A stretch of DNA of 63,373 nt, counting the filler, from Deltaproteobacteria bacterium (GTDB taxonomy: Bacteria > JAEEML01), in the NCBI GenBank assembly GCA_016283195.1. It is 8 parts of 8 records of this genome, joined end to end, with 100 filler letters (N's around TTAATTAATTAA, not from the genome) between each part and the next. Parts side by side here need not be neighbours in the genome. Positions count along the whole stretch, not along the records: positions 1 to 19,715 come from JAEEML010000182.1; 7 more parts are not named here. One strand, given 5' to 3'. Made by a program: the position numbers and the translations under genes. Under the pieces are notes generated by a model. The model saw only the letters and a list, made by a program, of their open reading frames with translations, did not search any database and was not told the origin of the DNA. Below, piece after piece: positions 1-6,051 of the stretch (position 1 is the first letter of the stretch; every line of letters starts with the position of its first letter).

Positions 1-1
1 C

Positions 2-197
2 AGCCGCCAAATAGTAACCCATGAATTTCCGCCATTTTACGACCATGACTCGCGCACTCTCATATTAGGTTCTATTCCTTCACCAAAATCACGCGAGGTG
101 GGCTTTTATTACGGGCACCCGCAAAACCGCTTTTGGAAGGTGCTGCGCGGTTTCTATGGAAAAGTTGGTAGAGGCATATAAAGTGCTGGCTGAATAG
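2..197 (+). pseudogene. DNA-deoxyinosine glycosylase (UDG superfamily), internally deleted remnant, 5' end cut by the window edge
   Basis: Frame 2 reads SRQIVTHEFPPFYDHDSRTLILGSIPSPKSREVGFYYGHPQNRFWKVL (family N-terminal motifs) and stops at 179-181. Another frame from 144 reads CAVSMEKLVEAYKVLAE*, resembling the family C-terminus. The middle of the gene is absent. Confidence 0.8.
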
Positions 198-236
198 CCG
201 GGAGAGAATTTGCTGGGGTTAATTTGAGTAGAAGCC

Positions 237-572
237 TCAGTGGATTATTCTGTTTACATGATCTTTTAATTTATCACTAAATTCATCAAGATCGCTTATA
301 GTTATTGCACCTTCATTTATAAGAGAAACAATATTAAAAATCAGCTCTGAACACTTCATCGTGGCTATAACACCAGTTTTTCGCTTGTCATTTCTAATGC
401 GCTTCTCCAGTTCCCAAAACTTGTTTGAGGCCAACTCATCACTTTGTAATAACTGACAATAACTCTCACAAAGCCGCGCCATATAATTTTCCTGCCAGTT
501 AGGCATTTTTTTTCTAAAAAGCTTCCAATCACTCTCTTCAAATTCAGGATATGTTACTATCATCTTGTACAC
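237..572 (-). CDS. Conserved hypothetical small protein (ESDWKLFRKK...WQE...FWELEKRI type)
   Basis: 111-aa ORF with a GTG start after an AGGTGA-like RBS; downstream of the repeat-borne TGTGCTAAAAT promoter-like motif. Confidence 0.7.
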   Translation of the reverse strand: MYKMIVTYPEFEESDWKLFRKKMPNWQENYMARLCESYCQLLQSDELASNKFWELEKRIRNDKRKTGVIATMKCSELIFNIVSLINEGAITISDLDEFSDKLKDHVNRIIH

Positions 573-629
573 TCACCTACGCGCATAAGAATTATGTGTC
601 TGGTTAAGATGCAAAAAAACACGGGGAGT

Positions 630-1093
630 ATTTTAGCACACCTGGGGCCGGGCGACCAAGAGGCAAGATAGTAGAAATTGGTGAAGCTTAATGGCCTTTT
701 GTGGTACCTGCCTGCCGTGCCTCAACTTATATAGTTCAAATTTCGTTTCTGGCTTTTCTCCTGGGAGGAAAACCTCCGCTCACGGCTTCGCCTGCCGCTC
801 TTGTTTTTCCTCCCAGGCACCTACCTTTCCTCCGGCTCCGACTTAAGGGAATGCTTTCCCTTAAGAATCCTCGCAAGGGGCCCGTTTTCCATGCACTGGG
901 TAAAATACCTGCTTTGCCGTCAGACCGGCAAGTATGGCATGGGGGGGGAGGCGCAATTTGGGGGTCAGAACAATTGGCGCCCGCCGCAGGCGGCTCGCCC
1001 CATTTTTTAATTTCGCTACAGGGTACCCTGTATATTAGGTCCCCCCAAGACCTAACGAATTTTTTCCGTGCCTATTGGCACAAGGAGCGCAGT
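630..1093. repeat. Modular intergenic repeat, family A, copy 1
   Basis: Shares blocks with 2597-2940, 24270-24510 (rc) and 27322-27510 (rc). Contains palindromes CCTGGGAGGAAAA..TTTTCCTCCCAGG, TTAAGGGAATGCTTTCCCTTAA (843-864), the CGCCCGCCGCAGGCGG core and TACAGGGTACCCTGTA (1017-1032). Confidence 0.9.
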
Positions 1094-1640
1094 ATGAAAA
1101 ATGGTTATCTATTAGTCTCAATCTTCTTAACTCTCGCCCTCACGGCCTGCGGCGCCGGTGAGCAAGGTCCACAGGGGCCAGAGGGCAAACAGGGCCCAAA
1201 AGGTTTCAAAGGCGATGCAGGGAGTGACGGCCAGCCAGGTTAACTGTCTCGCCAACACGAGTGAAGATACCAACTTTGTTGATACTTACGGCTGTCTCTA
1301 CACCTTTGCAGATGCGCAAAAAGTTTGCCCAGCCGGTTGGCATTTACCAACTCAGGCGGACTTTAATGCACTTCTCGCTTATGTTGGTTCCAATGATTTA
1401 ATGAAGTCCCAAAACTTACGGGCCACCAGTTGGGGCGGTTTAGATAGTTATGGTTTTGCAGCACTACCGGCTGGCTTCTACTCTGACAGTTACAACAATT
1501 TGGGGACATACACCTTTTTCTGGACAAGCGAAGAAAAGAATAATACCACCTCATTCCGCCTTAATGTAGATAGCAGCAAGGCTATAATGGCCAGCCATAA
1601 CAAGACATACGGTGGTTCCGTCCGCTGTCTAAAGGACTAA
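1094..1640 (+). pseudogene. Collagen-repeat/FISUMP lipoprotein with an internal deletion and frameshift
   Basis: AAGGAG RBS and ATG at 1094, lipobox LTAC, then GXX triplets to a stop at 1241-1243. A partial FISUMP domain (YGCLYTFADAQKVCPAGWHLPT...SVRCLKD) continues in another frame. Intact paralog at 26356-27321. Confidence 0.85.
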
Positions 1641-1646
1641 GCAGCA

Positions 1647-1705
1647 CAAATAAATACACCACACAGCTTTCGCCGTGTGATGCATTACCTCCCAAGCGCT
1701 TATCT
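1647..1705. repeat. Hairpin repeat family B (TACACCACACRGC-TTTC-GCCGTGTG), copy 1
   Basis: Reverse-complement copies at about 26300-26348 and 61958-62007. Confidence 0.8.
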
Positions 1706-1791
1706 ATATCTTATCTTCTGTCCTACCGAATGGCGGAACCTTTAATATGATTTTTAGCTTTTGTGGGGAGTTTTTGGAGAAAATTATAAAC

Positions 1792-1996
1792 TTGAAGTCC
1801 CCGGTCCCAACCCTCGTTTTGCGGCAGTCAATGCATGGTAGATTTCAATTTCAAGTTAAAATCTTTATTTATACGCCTTAATTTATGCATCGCTATAACC
1901 ATAATAAGCGTCGTTATTTATATGAGGGTCAACTCTAACGCGCTCTTTTGTGACTGACGATTTTGTTGCATTCACCCTGCCTTAAAACTACTCCAA
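1792..1996 (-). ncRNA. Candidate structured ncRNA immediately downstream of the DIP1984-family gene
   Basis: Minus-strand pairings found by eye: outer stem 1990-1996 with 1792-1798; long stem 1967-1988 with 1816-1835; pseudoknot 1924-1931 with 1808-1815. No ORF in the region. Confidence 0.55.
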
Positions 1997-2001
1997 CAAG
2001 T

Positions 2002-2463
2002 TTATAAAAGCTCGGTGGCCCAGTTAAGGGCCTGAATAGTATTATCGGTAACTCTAAGTTCCCTGGACAAATTATCCATCCGTTTGCGGGTCTCCGCTAT
2101 GTCGATAACGGTCACTAGTTTAATTTCGCTGCCCCGGCTACGAAAATAATTAAAATTGGGGCTAGCGTTTTCAATAGCCTCTTTGTAAGCCGCTATTTGC
2201 ATATTCAAAACATCTTTTTTGGCAATCAGTTCGGCAATGGTTTTATTACCATCAGCTACTGTTGCATTATTAGTTTTATTGATGCGGCTAATAAGCTCTT
2301 CAAGGTGGCCTATCACCCTATCCAGTTCGCTAAATAATTCTTCCGGCTTCTCCGGCGGATTTTCACCCTCCTGCACCAAAACGCTGCTTTTTAGCCTTTC
2401 TTTCAGCCAGTTGATTTTCTTTTTTAAATCTGCCCTCTCTTGCAAAGCCTCTGCTAATTTCAT
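2002..2463 (-). CDS. DIP1984 family protein (helical, function unknown)
   Basis: MKLAEALQERADL...VQEGENPPEKPEEL...RSRGSEIKL...IQALNWATELL signature; GGAGGAG RBS before the ATG at 2463. Confidence 0.9.
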   Translation of the reverse strand: MKLAEALQERADLKKKINWLKERLKSSVLVQEGENPPEKPEELFSELDRVIGHLEELISRINKTNNATVADGNKTIAELIAKKDVLNMQIAAYKEAIENASPNFNYFRSRGSEIKLVTVIDIAETRKRMDNLSRELRVTDNTIQALNWATELL

Positions 2464-2596
2464 CTTTTCTCCTCCTCCGTACTGCTCACTATGAGCATCA
2501 ACAGTAGCCATTTTAAGTACCCGGACTATCAGAATACGATAGTGCAAATAACTTTTTTCACTTTTTTGCGATTTTTTTTGGGCAACGAGCCCTCGG

Positions 2597-2940
2597 GGCG
2601 ACCAAGCAACAATATATTGGTGAAACTTAATGGACTTTTTGGGTATTTGCCTGCCGTGCCTCACCCCCTAACCTCCTCTCCGTTTTGAACAAACAGAGAG
2701 GAGGAATTTTTGAATATACAAGGCTTTATTCTAAAATATTTTTTCCTCCGGCTCCGACTTAAGGGAATGCGTTTCCTTAAGAATCCTCGCAAGAGGCACG
2801 TTTTCCATGCATTGGGTAAAATTTCTGCTTTGCCGCTAGGCCGGCAAATAAGGCATAGGGGGGAGCGCAACTTGGGGGCTTAGTGGCGCCCGCCGCAGGC
2901 GGGCGATCGCGCTATTTTTGATCCGGGCGCAGCTAGGCAA
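2597..2940. repeat. Modular intergenic repeat, family A, copy 2
   Basis: Aligns with 650-1000; palindromes at 2759-2780 and 2887-2905; carries a different internal hairpin module (2661-2705) from copy 1. Confidence 0.9.
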
Positions 2941-2953
2941 TTATATTAGTATT

Positions 2954-3004
2954 ATTGTGTTAGCAATAATATTGTGTTAGCAATAATATTGTGTTAGCAA
3001 TAAT
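2954..3004. repeat. Tandem repeat, 3 x 17 bp (ATTGTGTTAGCAATAAT)
   Basis: Three exact units at 2954, 2971 and 2988, bracketed by the inverted repeat AGTATTATTG / CAATAATACT. Confidence 0.9.
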
Positions 3005-3063
3005 ACTCCTCTTGCAAGAGGAGCGAAATTTTACTAGCCCATATTTGTCCAAAGAGGTACCTA

Positions 3064-4626
3064 ATGCATATCACATACATCCCGTGGCTAAAGGTAGTCT
3101 TCACTACATTAATACTCTTTTCTACTTTACCGGCAGGGGCACAGGAATACGGCTCATTTACCGATAGCCGCGACGGCACCAGCTATAAAACTGTGCAAAT
3201 CGGCCGCGAAACATGGCTCGCCGAAAACATGAAATATGTGGCCGAAAAACTGAGCTGCAGCGTGGATATCCAGCATGGCGGCTCCATAAAGAACGACGGT
3301 TGCTTATACACTTGGGCCGATGCCCATAAAGTTTGCCCGGCCGGCTGGCATTTGCCCAGCAAAGTGGAATTTACCCGCCTTTTAATCAATGTTGGCCAGG
3401 GCAAAGAGGGCTCGGATAATCTTAGGGATAACAGCTGGGAAAACGGCGCCAACGGTTCCGGCTTTGGGGCCCGGCCGGCCGGATATGCCGAATCCGGCAA
3501 CTATTTTAAATTTGGGGCCGGCGCTTATTTCTGGTCCACCACGGAGTGTGACGGAGCTGATGCGGCCGCCGCTTCTCTTTCGCTCTTTGCCGGCAGTGTC
3601 ACCGCCCAAAAATGCCACAGCCGGGTGACCGAGATGCTTTCTGTCCGCTGTGTTAAAGACAGCGAGGGTAGCGCCCAGGCCACCTTTATTGATAAGCGTG
3701 ACGGCAGCAAATACAAGACGGTGGAAATCGCCGGGCGCACCTGGATGGCCGAAAATATGAAATATATCAGCGCGGCCCTGGATTACAAAATAACCAAGAG
3801 CCCCAAAGAATATGGCTACTTATATAACTTTGAAGATGCCAAAAAAGTTTGCCCGGCCGGCTGGGAACTACCCAGTAAAGTGGATTTTGACAAGCTGCTG
3901 AGCGTTACCGATAGAGGGCAAAAGGGCTCGGATAACCTCAGGGACAAGCTCTGGGAAAATGGCCAGAATGTCTCCGGCTTTGGCGCTCTGCCGGCCGGTT
4001 ACTGCGACAAGAGCGGCTGTGTGCCCTTTGATACGGCGGCCTATTTTTGGTCCAGCACCGAACGTGACAGTGGCCGCGGCTACGGCCTCTATGTGGATGT
4101 GGGCAAAGTCACGGTAAATAACGGCAAAAAGGGCAGCTATCTCTCGGTGCGCTGCGTTAAAAGCCCGGAAGGTGCCGGTGGGGAAGTAGCCGGCACGGAA
4201 GTAGCCGCGGGCCCAGCGGCTCCTGCTCCTGCCGGTACGCCCCCGGTTAAAGATGAGCCGGCCGCTTCCGGAGCGGGCAAGGGGCTACTTGCCGGCTCGC
4301 TCACTTTGGGCGTAGTGGGGGCCGGCGGCATTGGCACCGGCATTGGTTTTATGGTGGTGGCCGGTAAGCAGGAAAAGCGCCGCACTAACCCGGAAGTGCT
4401 CGATAGCATGCTCTATTTGGAAAATCTCGGCTCTAATGCCAAAAAGAACAAAATAGTGGGCGGCGTGGCTCTGGGTGTGGGGGGCGCGGCGCTGGTTACG
4501 GCGGTGGTATTAGGCGTTTGCCATGCCCGGGCCCAAAATGGCGGCAAAGCGGGGAAAAAACAGGTGGCTCTCTGGCCTAGTCTGGGCCAACATGAAAGCT
4601 CTTTGCATCTAGCGCTCAGCTTTTAG
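3064..4626 (+). CDS. Secreted protein with two FISUMP domains and a C-terminal glycine-rich membrane anchor
   Basis: Signal peptide; two copies of FxDxRDG..YKTV.I....W.AENM...CPAGW.LP...SVRCVK; Pro/Ala linker; two Gly-rich hydrophobic segments; ends in F. Confidence 0.9.
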   Translation: MHITYIPWLKVVFTTLILFSTLPAGAQEYGSFTDSRDGTSYKTVQIGRETWLAENMKYVAEKLSCSVDIQHGGSIKNDGCLYTWADAHKVCPAGWHLPSKVEFTRLLINVGQGKEGSDNLRDNSWENGANGSGFGARPAGYAESGNYFKFGAGAYFWSTTECDGADAAAASLSLFAGSVTAQKCHSRVTEMLSVRCVKDSEGSAQATFIDKRDGSKYKTVEIAGRTWMAENMKYISAALDYKITKSPKEYGYLYNFEDAKKVCPAGWELPSKVDFDKLLSVTDRGQKGSDNLRDKLWENGQNVSGFGALPAGYCDKSGCVPFDTAAYFWSSTERDSGRGYGLYVDVGKVTVNNGKKGSYLSVRCVKSPEGAGGEVAGTEVAAGPAAPAPAGTPPVKDEPAASGAGKGLLAGSLTLGVVGAGGIGTGIGFMVVAGKQEKRRTNPEVLDSMLYLENLGSNAKKNKIVGGVALGVGGAALVTAVVLGVCHARAQNGGKAGKKQVALWPSLGQHESSLHLALSF

Positions 4627-4632
4627 GAGATT

Positions 4633-6051
4633 ATGATGAAATACATGAAATTATTGCTTTTGCTCTCATCTTTTAGCCTCCTTTCCTGCGGCTTTGATTT
4701 GCTTAACCAGCACCCGGATGCCAAATATGAAGAGCAAAAAGGCGAAAAGTTGCCCAAAGATTTAAAAGGAGGCCTGGCTTGCAGCGCCGATGGCAAATGC
4801 CCCAGCGGTTATGACTGTGTAAAAGCCGCCTATTACCCCAATGGCAAATGTGTAAAATGCGAAAATGAGCTCATGACCGGCGAAAACTGCGACCAGTGCA
4901 AAAACGGCAAGAACGGCCCCAATTGCGATTCGGAAATAACTACCAAACCCAGCGACAGACCGCAAGTTTGCGATAATCCCCACAAAACCGGCGAAAACTG
5001 CGAGAAGTGTGCAGATGGCTGGATCGGCAAAGATTGCAATATAGAGATCACATGCCTGCATGGCGTTGTAAACTCCACTACCGGCCATTGTGAGGAAGGC
5101 AGTTGTGCAAAAGGCTGGACGGGCGAAGACTGCAACATGTGTGCAGCGGGCTTTACCGGCGAAAACTGCGTATCTGACCAATGCAACAACCATGGTACCT
5201 TTAATACCCAAACCGGCAAATGCGACTGTGACACTAACTGGGACGGCGAAAACTGCAACAAGTGTAAACCAGGCCATGGCGGTACAGAATGCAATACGCA
5301 TTGTGTGAACCCGAGGATGACCGGCGAAAACTGCAATGAATGTCCAGATGCAAACATGACCGGCGACAAGTGCGATCAACCTATCACATGCAATGTTGAC
5401 CACGGTGAGCTGGATACCAGCACCGGCAAGTGCAGCGAGTGTAAAGAAGGCTGGAGCGGTGATGATTGCAAAGAGTGTGATCATTCTTTAGGCTATGGTG
5501 CCGAGTGTAAAGCTTACGGAAGTGTTGCTGATTTGGATGGTAATAAATATAAGACTACCATTATTGGTAAACTGGAATGGATGGCTGAAAATATAGCTGC
5601 TACTACCGGCAACGATGGCAGCTCTCTCACCTGCTATGCCAACAATAATGTTTCTGTCTTTATAACTACTTATGGCTGCCTTTATACTTGGGAAGATGCC
5701 ATGAAAGTGTGTCCAAGTGGTTGGCATTTACCGTTGACAGCAGAGTTTAACGCACTTTTAGATTATGTGCGCCCTGACTCTGACAGTGATTCCACAATGT
5801 CTAGGAACTTACGTGCCAGTAGTTGGGCGAGCGGTGCCGATAAATATGGCTTTGGCGCCCTGCCCGCTGGCCTCTACAACGATGACTACAACGATTTAGG
5901 TCAACAAGCCAACTTCTGGTCGGCCACGGATAACGATGACGATACCTTCGCCGACGGCCTGTACTTGCGTGATGAAAATGTGGCTGGGTTCAACACCAAC
6001 AAGGTTATCGCCTTCTCCGTGCGTTGCGTAAGAGACGCTACTAACCACTAA
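4633..6051 (+). CDS. Lipoprotein with EGF/laminin-like Cys-rich repeats and a C-terminal FISUMP domain
   Basis: Lipobox LLSC; repeated C..GWxGE.C units; FISUMP motifs YKTTIIG..EWMAEN, YGCLYTW, CPSGWHLP, FSVRCVRD. Confidence 0.9.
   Translation: MMKYMKLLLLLSSFSLLSCGFDLLNQHPDAKYEEQKGEKLPKDLKGGLACSADGKCPSGYDCVKAAYYPNGKCVKCENELMTGENCDQCKNGKNGPNCDSEITTKPSDRPQVCDNPHKTGENCEKCADGWIGKDCNIEITCLHGVVNSTTGHCEEGSCAKGWTGEDCNMCAAGFTGENCVSDQCNNHGTFNTQTGKCDCDTNWDGENCNKCKPGHGGTECNTHCVNPRMTGENCNECPDANMTGDKCDQPITCNVDHGELDTSTGKCSECKEGWSGDDCKECDHSLGYGAECKAYGSVADLDGNKYKTTIIGKLEWMAENIAATTGNDGSSLTCYANNNVSVFITTYGCLYTWEDAMKVCPSGWHLPLTAEFNALLDYVRPDSDSDSTMSRNLRASSWASGADKYGFGALPAGLYNDDYNDLGQQANFWSATDNDDDTFADGLYLRDENVAGFNTNKVIAFSVRCVRDATNH

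Follow-up and report, generated by a model that had tools for sequence, protein, structure and literature searches.

Genes of the DIP1984/DUF6847 protein family are directly followed, on the same strand and in many bacterial phyla, by an undescribed family of structured RNAs of ~165–247 nucleotides (nt). A divergent member lies in a 63,373-nt stretch of DNA from a Deltaproteobacteria bacterium (assembly GCA_016283195.1; hereafter the window), whose minus strand carries a DIP1984/DUF6847 gene and, immediately past it, the RNA. An initial annotation of the window, made from its sequence alone, had pointed to a pseudoknotted RNA behind this gene and to a joint protein–RNA module. Our preferred reading, to which we give a probability of about 60%, is that the RNA and the protein encoded on the same transcript would act together as a two-part ribonucleoprotein.

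An undescribed RNA family directly after DIP1984 genes

Our set of loci consisted of 80 taken from species-representative genomes and 33 of metagenomic origin. In a BLASTN search, the 401 nt downstream of the window gene matched several distant loci at the equivalent position. Of the 113 loci, 86 had a match (88 matches in all) to a sequence-only profile that we derived from 15 downstream regions; every match was on the gene strand and 3′ of the stop codon, most of them starting 0–30 nt after it. Covariance model R1, with 218 positions and 37 pairs, combines a nested structure drawn by hand with a structure-blind MAFFT alignment, A2, which holds 54 distinct full-length elements; the alignment derived from the model, A3, has 98 distinct rows. 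The model was searched in 100 + 17 sources: it found the RNA in 97 of the 100 (99 matches) and in 13 of the 17 (14 matches), hence in 110 of 117. Each of the 113 model matches lay on the gene strand—the strand to which the initial annotation had assigned the structure—and the RNA was downstream of the gene in all 110 matched sources. Five of the seven misses (L011, L049, L089, L103, and L110) have 0–127 nt after the stop codon, L112 carries a partial gene, and in L109 a GUUAG and helix P2 (see below) are recognisable without the G-rich tail.

The carriers named in the records include Oscillospiraceae, Ruminococcus, Lachnospiraceae, Erysipelotrichaceae, Veillonella, Selenomonadaceae, Treponema/Spirochaetaceae, Anaerobiospirillum, Desulfovibrio, and metagenome-assembled genomes of Chloroflexi and Bifidobacteriaceae; homologs from soil and peat metagenomes with 36–39% protein identity also carry the RNA. 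On plasmids, copies follow the gene in Picosynechococcus (41.4 bits), Acinetobacter baumannii (24.6), and Enterococcus faecium (19.6), where they lie within unannotated gaps of 269–323 nt after a 'DIP1984 family protein' in RefSeq records (L119 2960–3227, L120 2963–3284, L121 2951–3267). The protein family is also present in Deinococcus radiodurans, which served as a control genome.

When the 230-nt flanks of 100 loci (4950 pairs) were compared by BLASTN, the upstream flanks were similar in 64 pairs and the downstream flanks in 672, and among the 4886 pairs devoid of upstream similarity, 612 still had the downstream element in common. Since downstream similarity so far exceeds upstream similarity, the association is not mere synteny. 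Neighbouring open reading frames (ORFs), called crudely as the nearest non-overlapping ORFs of at least 100 amino acids (aa), were mostly housekeeping enzymes: 75 upstream ORFs gave 78 Pfam families (the commonest, GNAT, in 5) and 71 downstream ORFs gave 82 (the commonest in 3), with no further conserved neighbour gene among them, and the next ORF had the opposite orientation in 32 of 72 loci. In five of five whole genomes, R1 had a single match, located at the DIP1984 gene. Together with the 110 matched sources, this strongly supports the proposal of a single conserved module made up of the gene and the RNA behind it.

Rfam 15 returned no match for window positions 1–6000 at E ≤ 1, none at the element in eight loci at the same threshold, and none at the element in 20 loci at the gathering threshold; in the two sets of loci, tRNA matches lie elsewhere. 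With no Rfam 15 family at the element, the novelty of the RNA, which the initial annotation had left to such a search, stands.

The gene itself was correctly recognised from the start. Its product matches PF20935 (DUF6847) at 161.6 bits (cut-off 27) and NF038048 (NCBIfam DIP1984_fam) at 170.6 bits (cut-off 70), over its whole length in both cases, and keeps all 36 invariant columns of the protein alignment A1, of whose 26 rows it is itself one. PF20935 was the sole family in a Pfam scan of the window protein, which gave no ToxN/AbiQ-like match. Of 1.84 billion cluster representatives, 1815 belong to the family at E ≤ 1e-10, which makes it a family of ~1,800 clusters (50% identity); of the 150 best-scoring ones, most have a length of ~150 aa. 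Features of the gene are as follows.

2002–2463, minus strand: DIP1984/DUF6847 gene, 153 aa; ATG 2463–2461, stop codon TAA 2004–2002
2478–2469: Shine–Dalgarno-like GGAGGAGGAG, upstream of the DIP1984/DUF6847 gene

Architecture of the family and of the window copy

Members of the family open with a closing helix, P1, which begins at or adjoining the stop codon. Next come the conserved GGUAG junction and P2, a long helix whose purine-rich internal loop is conserved, and after these a core and a tail. The core has an H-type pseudoknot, P3/PK3 (UCUC with GAGA, or ACCC with GGGU), and the loop GRGC of hairpin P4 pairs with a downstream GCYC to form a second one, PK4, whose central pair is GC in 61 rows, AU in 23, GU in 5, and unpaired in 0. 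Further elements are P5, a small hairpin; an ACC that is invariant; and, in some members only, a hairpin whose loop, GGUUCGAAUCC, is a T-loop of the tRNA type. A near-invariant single-stranded tail GAGGGUGGGNNNGGGGA sits between P2 and P1. RNAalifold run on A2 recovers P2, the T-loop hairpin, and P5, to which mutual information in A2 and A3 adds P3, PK3, P4, PK4, and a C–G pair in the P2 internal loop. There is also non-Watson–Crick covariation, with G:A in 60 rows and A:G in 17, and the G–U pairs of P5 (in 21, 27, and 31 rows) are compatible with the gene strand only.

Covariation in support of this fold is strong. Across the 46 pairs in 11 helices of A3, 82.4% of the cells were paired as against 62.0 ± 0.5% after shuffling, 1000 cells were changed on both sides as against 356 ± 18, and the covariation score was 0.486 as against 0.191, a value reached by none of 500 shuffles, while partners slid by 1–3 columns scored 0.07–0.12. 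Because A3 is fitted to R1, the count was repeated on A2: 76.6% of cells were paired (66.1% shuffled), double changes numbered 365 (173 shuffled), and the score was 0.349 as against 0.200, again with 0 of 500 shuffles as high and with slid partners at 0.10–0.16, in controls that are, for both alignments, not phylogeny-aware. PK3, PK4, and the loop C–G pair covary though they are absent from R1. The covariance-model survey of regions downstream of homologs, put forward as a check by the initial annotation, thus returned a conserved, covarying structure. A pairing of GGUA with UACC was considered as well and dropped; its partners are invariant and so beyond the reach of a covariation test. A two-pair GU/GC/UA contact, k14–k152, is tentative.

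GUAG lies a median of 13 nt past the stop, and 8–32 nt past it in 82 of 97 rows; in the other 15, insertions shift the intact RNA to 48–629 nt from the stop. At L041 (3454–3617), a ~165-nt insertion with long terminal inverted repeats, resembling a miniature inverted-repeat transposable element (MITE), lies between the gene and an intact RNA. The spacing of conserved anchors is spread over all three frames (38/33/25, 40/33/23, and 37/31/28), so that no reading frame is kept and the element is not coding; for a small conserved ORF, the longest stop-free run (median 60 codons) was uninformative. The ideas of a readthrough signal or of a second stop codon in frame at GUAG were likewise discarded, as the distances from stop to GUAG have no 3-nt periodicity, and an apparent 'mini' form in G071 proved to be a full-length divergent copy, with GGUAG ~10 nt past the stop, of which R1 had aligned the ends only. 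The second G-run of the tail is GUGG in several members; a G-quadruplex in the tail might be entertained as a lead only, and a literature search for the tail motif gave, among the matches listed, only unrelated eukaryotic G-quadruplex work.

The window copy has the following parts.

1779–2002, minus strand: DIP1984-associated RNA, divergent member; R1 match of 41.6 bits, E 3.7e-13, model positions 1–218 of 218
1997–2007, minus strand: P1 5′ strand UUAUAAACUUG, spanning the last sense codon and the stop codon
1784–1794, minus strand: P1 3′ strand CAAGUUUAUAA, 11 Watson–Crick pairs with 2007–1997
1988–1991, minus strand: junction motif GUAG (family consensus GGUAG), 11 nt past the stop codon
1967–1988, minus strand: P2 5′ strand, with P2a 1988–1984 and 1981–1977, internal loop GGUG 1976–1973, and P2b AAUGCA 1972–1967
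1816–1835, minus strand: P2 3′ strand, with UGCAUU 1835–1830, GA 1829–1828, CUGCC 1827–1823, GC, and AAAAC 1820–1816
1836–1966, minus strand: AU-rich core, mostly insertions in the model alignment
1839–1837, minus strand: ACC motif, kept in the window copy
1798–1815, minus strand: G-rich tail GAGGGUUGGGACCGGGGA, near-invariant, with one extra base relative to the family consensus GAGGGUGGGAAUGGGGA
1653–1686, minus strand: terminator-like hairpin of 15 pairs with tail TATTTGTGCT, ~100 nt past the RNA

All complementarities that the initial annotation had listed are present, and its outer and long interrupted stems reappear in the minimum free energy (MFE) fold; their standing in the family differs. 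The long stem (1988–1967 with 1835–1816) is P2, the best-supported helix, with many compensatory changes. The outer stem (1996–1990 with 1798–1792) is a genuine complementarity but should be redrawn: it uses G1991 and U1990 of GUAG, and 2007–1997 with 1794–1784 fits P1 better. This duplex has an energy of −12.1 kcal/mol, compared with −2.0 for shuffles, and the MFE fold holds nine of its 11 pairs (2007–1999 with 1792–1784), while 1794–1793 go to the upper stem of the original proposal. The strands of the pseudoknot of 1931–1924 with 1815–1808 are complementary in the window, but this pseudoknot is no family feature: 1931–1924 falls in an insertion non-homologous to the model, and the GAGGG of the tail is near-invariant even in members that have no CCCUC-type partner.

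The tail portion of the window copy had already been matched by the sequence-only profile (E 7.8e-8). In the core (1966–1836), model alignment and sequence inspection found P3/PK3, P4/PK4, the T-loop hairpin, and P5 not recognisable; by its sequence, CGCU (1910–1907) with AGCG (1894–1891) may be an equivalent of PK4. In the divergent members we inspected, junction, P2, and tail are the parts that are retained, the absent tail of L109 aside. Sequence comparison indicates that the window copy is not decaying, since the 401 nt after the stop codon (1601–2001) are 100% identical in two metagenome contigs (L081 and L082, both with the same 41.6 bits), the score is within the range of other phylum-level outliers, and the protein retains the invariant columns.

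tRNA likeness, distribution, and transcription

Part of the element resembles a tRNA elbow in sequence, which bears on whether the RNA might be an independent noncoding RNA—for example, a processed tRNA-like RNA—merely sharing a promoter with the protein gene. The T-loop hairpin is present in 62 of 96 distinct members and co-occurs with an upstream UGG (48 of the 62, as against 5 of the 34 without the hairpin; Fisher p ~2e-9, not corrected for relatedness), and the element of L021 searched alone against Rfam at E ≤ 10 gave mascRNA (RF01684) as its only match, at a sub-threshold 27.6 bits (gathering 42.5; E 8e-4 in this 261-nt search). Against such independence, the hairpin is missing in about a third of the members (34 of 96), window included, in 18 loci ARAGORN placed neither a tRNA nor a tmRNA at the element, no clear stand-alone copy turned up, and the copy linked to the gene was the only one in each of the five whole genomes. 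We therefore regard this explanation as very improbable. Beside the element, nine tRNA genes (L094 52–1181) lie upstream of a DIP1984 locus from a peat metagenome, and divergent tRNA pairs occur upstream of the gene in L001, L002, L005, L013, and L021.

A different light is cast by the distribution of the module, which could be that of a new type III-like toxin–antitoxin (TA) or defence pair, in which a growth-inhibiting DIP1984 protein would be restrained by the structured RNA. The module is compact and self-sufficient, its neighbours vary, and its occurrence is patchy: within one order, three of 151 genomes had a protein above the Pfam cut-off, and in all three the RNA adjoined the gene. It travels on plasmids: out of 72,556 plasmid records, 370 contain the family, and Acinetobacter accounts for 341 of these. 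The window protein is no more than 58% identical to its nearest relatives, those with names being from Clostridia and Oscillospiraceae, whereas the flanking genes of the window look Fibrobacter-like. In one Lachnospiraceae lineage the RNA is tandemly duplicated behind a single DIP1984 gene (L053/L062 3453–3689 and 3721–3938, 121.6 and 136.7 bits), a hint that the second copy serves dosage. Several features, however, do not suit a TA or defence pair. The RNA is downstream of the protein gene and has no tandem repeats (no direct-repeat family in 1780–2001), the helical protein matches nothing like ToxN or AbiQ, and defence-related searches gave weak hits at best: coiled-coil matches with E 0.0012 or worse in PADLOC, and nothing better than E 0.014 in PHROGs. 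In rumen Bacillota the neighbours are housekeeping genes rather than defence islands, and the family is nearly absent from phages, with five of 50,697 phage records and no IMG/VR locus, which also disposes of a phage origin. A TA or defence pair of this kind is, on balance, rather improbable.

Nor does the scanned part of the window place the module among TA genes. The accessory islet with TA genes that the initial annotation had proposed is not borne out by the ORFs scanned between 2 and 14486, which encode a UDG, Fib_succ_major paralogs, QueD, HslVU, a 5′-nucleotidase, and MetH; three ORFs of 90–144 aa had no Pfam match. Two tandem paralog units flank the DIP1984 module: patchy direct repeats at 650–993 and 2596–2902 (families of 15–122 nt with 80–100% identity, the longest being 122 nt at 89%) each lie upstream of a Fib_succ_major paralog (1158–1640 and 3064–4626). 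Just upstream of the ORF at 3064, positions 2950–3005 hold three 17-nt-spaced copies of TAATATTGTGTTAGCAATAATA, which are also inverted repeats and, judged by this arrangement, may be an operator-like array. The product of the ORF at 4633–6051 has EGF repeats of the laminin/teneurin type and, at its C-terminus, a Fib_succ_major domain; at the DNA level, the EGF repeats are visible as repeats spaced by 111–177 nt.

Transcription was followed in RNA runs that contain part of the stretch. There were six, from four bovine or sheep gut studies, and four were compared. In two studies, whole short metatranscriptome contigs cover the body of the RNA (1821–1988, 1821–1991, and 1824–1991), while a piece of the coding sequence (2314–2477) appeared in only one of the compared runs; in a third study, the listed differences of a variant-strain contig (1704–1911) all fall in 1738–1765, beyond the RNA, and none in 1792–1911. 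These contigs, which show no RNA ends, strand, or abundance, may include DNA carry-over and are uninformative about the parts they leave uncovered, give a weak hint that the sequence past the stop is transcribed and conserved; contigs of two studies share their ends, at 1821/1824 and 1988/1991, which would at best hint weakly at a discrete RNA. The hairpin at 1686–1653 is the probable end of the transcription unit. A scan for terminators found none inside 1784–2007, in line with the initial view that a terminator does not explain the structure. Across the family, terminator-like hairpins within 130 nt past the RNA occur in 32 of 96 distinct loci, as against 17 of 96 on the opposite strand.

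These hairpins would also suit a purely cis-acting element of the 3′ untranslated region (UTR), acting in mRNA stability, processing, or translation termination, perhaps sensing a ligand or the state of the cell, and leaving no lasting particle. Such an element would share the constant features of the RNA, which is always in the same transcription unit as the gene and starts at the stop codon, so that translation and folding are physically coupled, and its two pseudoknots and T-loop put it in the complexity range of large riboswitches. A position-dependent role is hard to fit to an RNA that stays intact when displaced from the stop by insertions or duplicated in tandem, though, and no expression platform is evident in the element. 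Known riboswitches are located in 5′ leaders, a position that the element does not share. We thus consider a cis-acting element unlikely, though worth keeping in view.

A candidate two-part ribonucleoprotein and its known counterparts

In our preferred reading, that of a two-part ribonucleoprotein, the RNA would be made as a 3′ extension of the DIP1984 mRNA and would fold once the terminating ribosome, whose footprint would cover P1 and GUAG, has gone. Given the distance of GUAG from the stop codon and the size of a ribosome footprint, which is general knowledge, a terminating ribosome is expected to open P1 and the start of P2. The RNA would then act with the protein translated from the same transcript, and the protein is predicted to bind most probably at the P1/GUAG/P2/G-tail junction, which all lineages retain, that of the window included. 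That the RNA works with the protein is suggested by three considerations: no other feature surrounding the pair is conserved, no clear case of the RNA on its own was found, and the conserved, purine-rich junction makes a plausible protein site. In short, we see in the element a new structured RNA that is coupled to a protein, probably as its partner in a ribonucleoprotein. The patchy, plasmid-borne, self-contained distribution fits an accessory module of the stress, addiction, or defence type better than a housekeeping one.

On the protein side, a profile of 26 members matched one solved structure of the same kind, 3kdq ('uncharacterized conserved protein'; E 1.5e-35), its only other structure match being 9r1o, a designed coiled coil (E 3.8e-06). 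The AlphaFold model (mean confidence score pLDDT 83.7) consists of four long helices and short strands; Foldseek with this model returned 3kdq alone, and searches of the ESM Atlas and with VIA-align gave nothing specific on protein function. In the literature, the family goes by a legacy label, 'septicolysin', which among the matches listed mostly stands for a presumed virulence gene on Acinetobacter plasmids (PMC5559437, PMC5390826, bioRxiv 10.1101/2023.09.04.556232); the terms 'DUF6847' and 'PF20935' were not found in this search, which nowhere linked the DIP1984 family to an RNA. A 'septicolysin-like' transcript of a termite-gut symbiont was reported to be up-regulated in eight of eight treatments compared (PMC5390826), a lead that hints at a stress-responsive module.

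Beyond the phylogeny-blind controls and the limits of the contigs mentioned above, several observations weigh against a ribonucleoprotein. P1 is the weakest helix, with 54% (A3) and 44% (A2) of its cells paired and a varying register, and its per-sequence duplex energy averages −6.6 kcal/mol as against −4.6 for shuffled sequences, which is moderate support. Weak, incomplete R1 matches of 18.5–20.7 bits occurred in three fetched stretches of 1.7–4.3 kb that lack a DIP1984 gene; these orphans (L123 2000–2080, L124 2037–2240, and L122 1164–1370, the first two with tail-like motifs, CGAGGGUGGGGAA and GCGGGUGGGGAAGGGGA, respectively) may be relics or chance. The protein has no recognised RNA-binding fold, an all-against-all structural search yielding generic helical bundles only (Z ≤ 9.9), and it is near-neutral to acidic, with a median isoelectric point of 5.9 in 26 members and nine conserved basic positions. 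Binding of the RNA by the protein is a prediction. Moreover, the RNA is far more elaborate than a simple operator requires, so that it may have a job of its own.

The fold of the window copy, taken alone, is no more stable than dinucleotide shuffles of its sequence: for 1785–2001 (217 nt) the z-score was −0.06, with 93 of 200 shuffles folding as well, and for 1780–2010 (231 nt) it was −1.36, with 20 of 200. Thermodynamics alone was therefore abandoned as proof of the fold, which comparison with relatives, and not the window by itself, establishes as real. The same figures are what would be expected if the region held no specific element, its stems being due to chance in an AU-rich 3′ UTR, to a terminator, or to a small mobile element with inverted repeats. 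This notion is refuted by the comparative data, with conservation across phyla at a fixed place and strand and compensatory changes, and a separate terminator-like hairpin (1686–1653) lies beyond the RNA; we accord it next to no probability. A MITE or other mobile inverted repeat is an unnecessary assumption given the cross-phylum, gene-linked conservation.

Taken at its widest, and here we are tentative, setting the odds somewhat short of even, the ribonucleoprotein would be a widespread new bacterial one. Its working core would be the ~200-nt RNA, with two pseudoknots, a tRNA-elbow-like module, and the near-invariant G-rich strand, and the four-helix protein would be dedicated to it as a partner; the whole might be a stress, addiction, or defence module under RNA control, put together in cis when the ribosome departs from the stop codon. 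If true, this would be a class on a par with Ro/Y-RNA or OLE particles. The RNA by itself already offers a first concrete functional handle on DIP1984/DUF6847, a family with a crystal structure (3kdq) that has long been mislabelled 'septicolysin' and, on Acinetobacter resistance plasmids, is widely annotated as a putative virulence factor; it argues against the cytolysin label. As a class of complex fold, the element joins the short list of large orphan RNAs of bacteria. Annotation pipelines leave it blank, and R1 can be used at once to annotate it; the strict pairing of gene and RNA makes binding, structure, and knockout studies easy.

Among known systems, type III TA pairs (ToxIN, CptIN, and TenpIN) carry a short tandem-repeat RNA upstream of the toxin gene, with a terminator in between, and the endoribonuclease toxin cuts the repeats; the ToxIN complex includes a pseudoknotted RNA. 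The DIP1984 module is similar in that it, too, is a self-contained, horizontally mobile pair of a protein gene and an adjacent structured RNA on one strand. It differs in that its RNA is a single ~200-nt fold located downstream and its four-helix protein has no nuclease signature; of the three defining features (tandem repeats, an upstream RNA, and a ToxN/AbiQ-type endoribonuclease), it has none.

Ro60 (Rsr) is a HEAT-repeat ring whose neighbouring Y RNA (YrlA) bears a tRNA-like T-arm module. Here, too, a patchily distributed protein goes with a neighbouring noncoding RNA that has a T-arm-like module, and the DIP1984 family, like Ro, is found in Deinococcus radiodurans. In contrast to YrlA, the RNA has no Rfam Y-RNA match, abuts the stop codon, and can dispense with its T-loop hairpin, and the protein is a helical bundle of 150 aa. 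In the mascRNA of MALAT1, too, a longer transcript has a tRNA-like fold at its 3′ end. That family is eukaryotic, whereas the tRNA-like part of the DIP1984 RNA lies inside P2, is missing in one-third of members, and scores below threshold. Finally, OLE (with OapA), raiA, and HEARO/omega RNA are orphan bacterial RNAs of complex fold that are tied to particular genes. The DIP1984 RNA resembles these in being large, pseudoknotted, phylogenetically wide, and tied to a fixed genomic partner; none of their Rfam models matches it, and it is set apart from them by its partner, DUF6847, and by its position at the stop codon.

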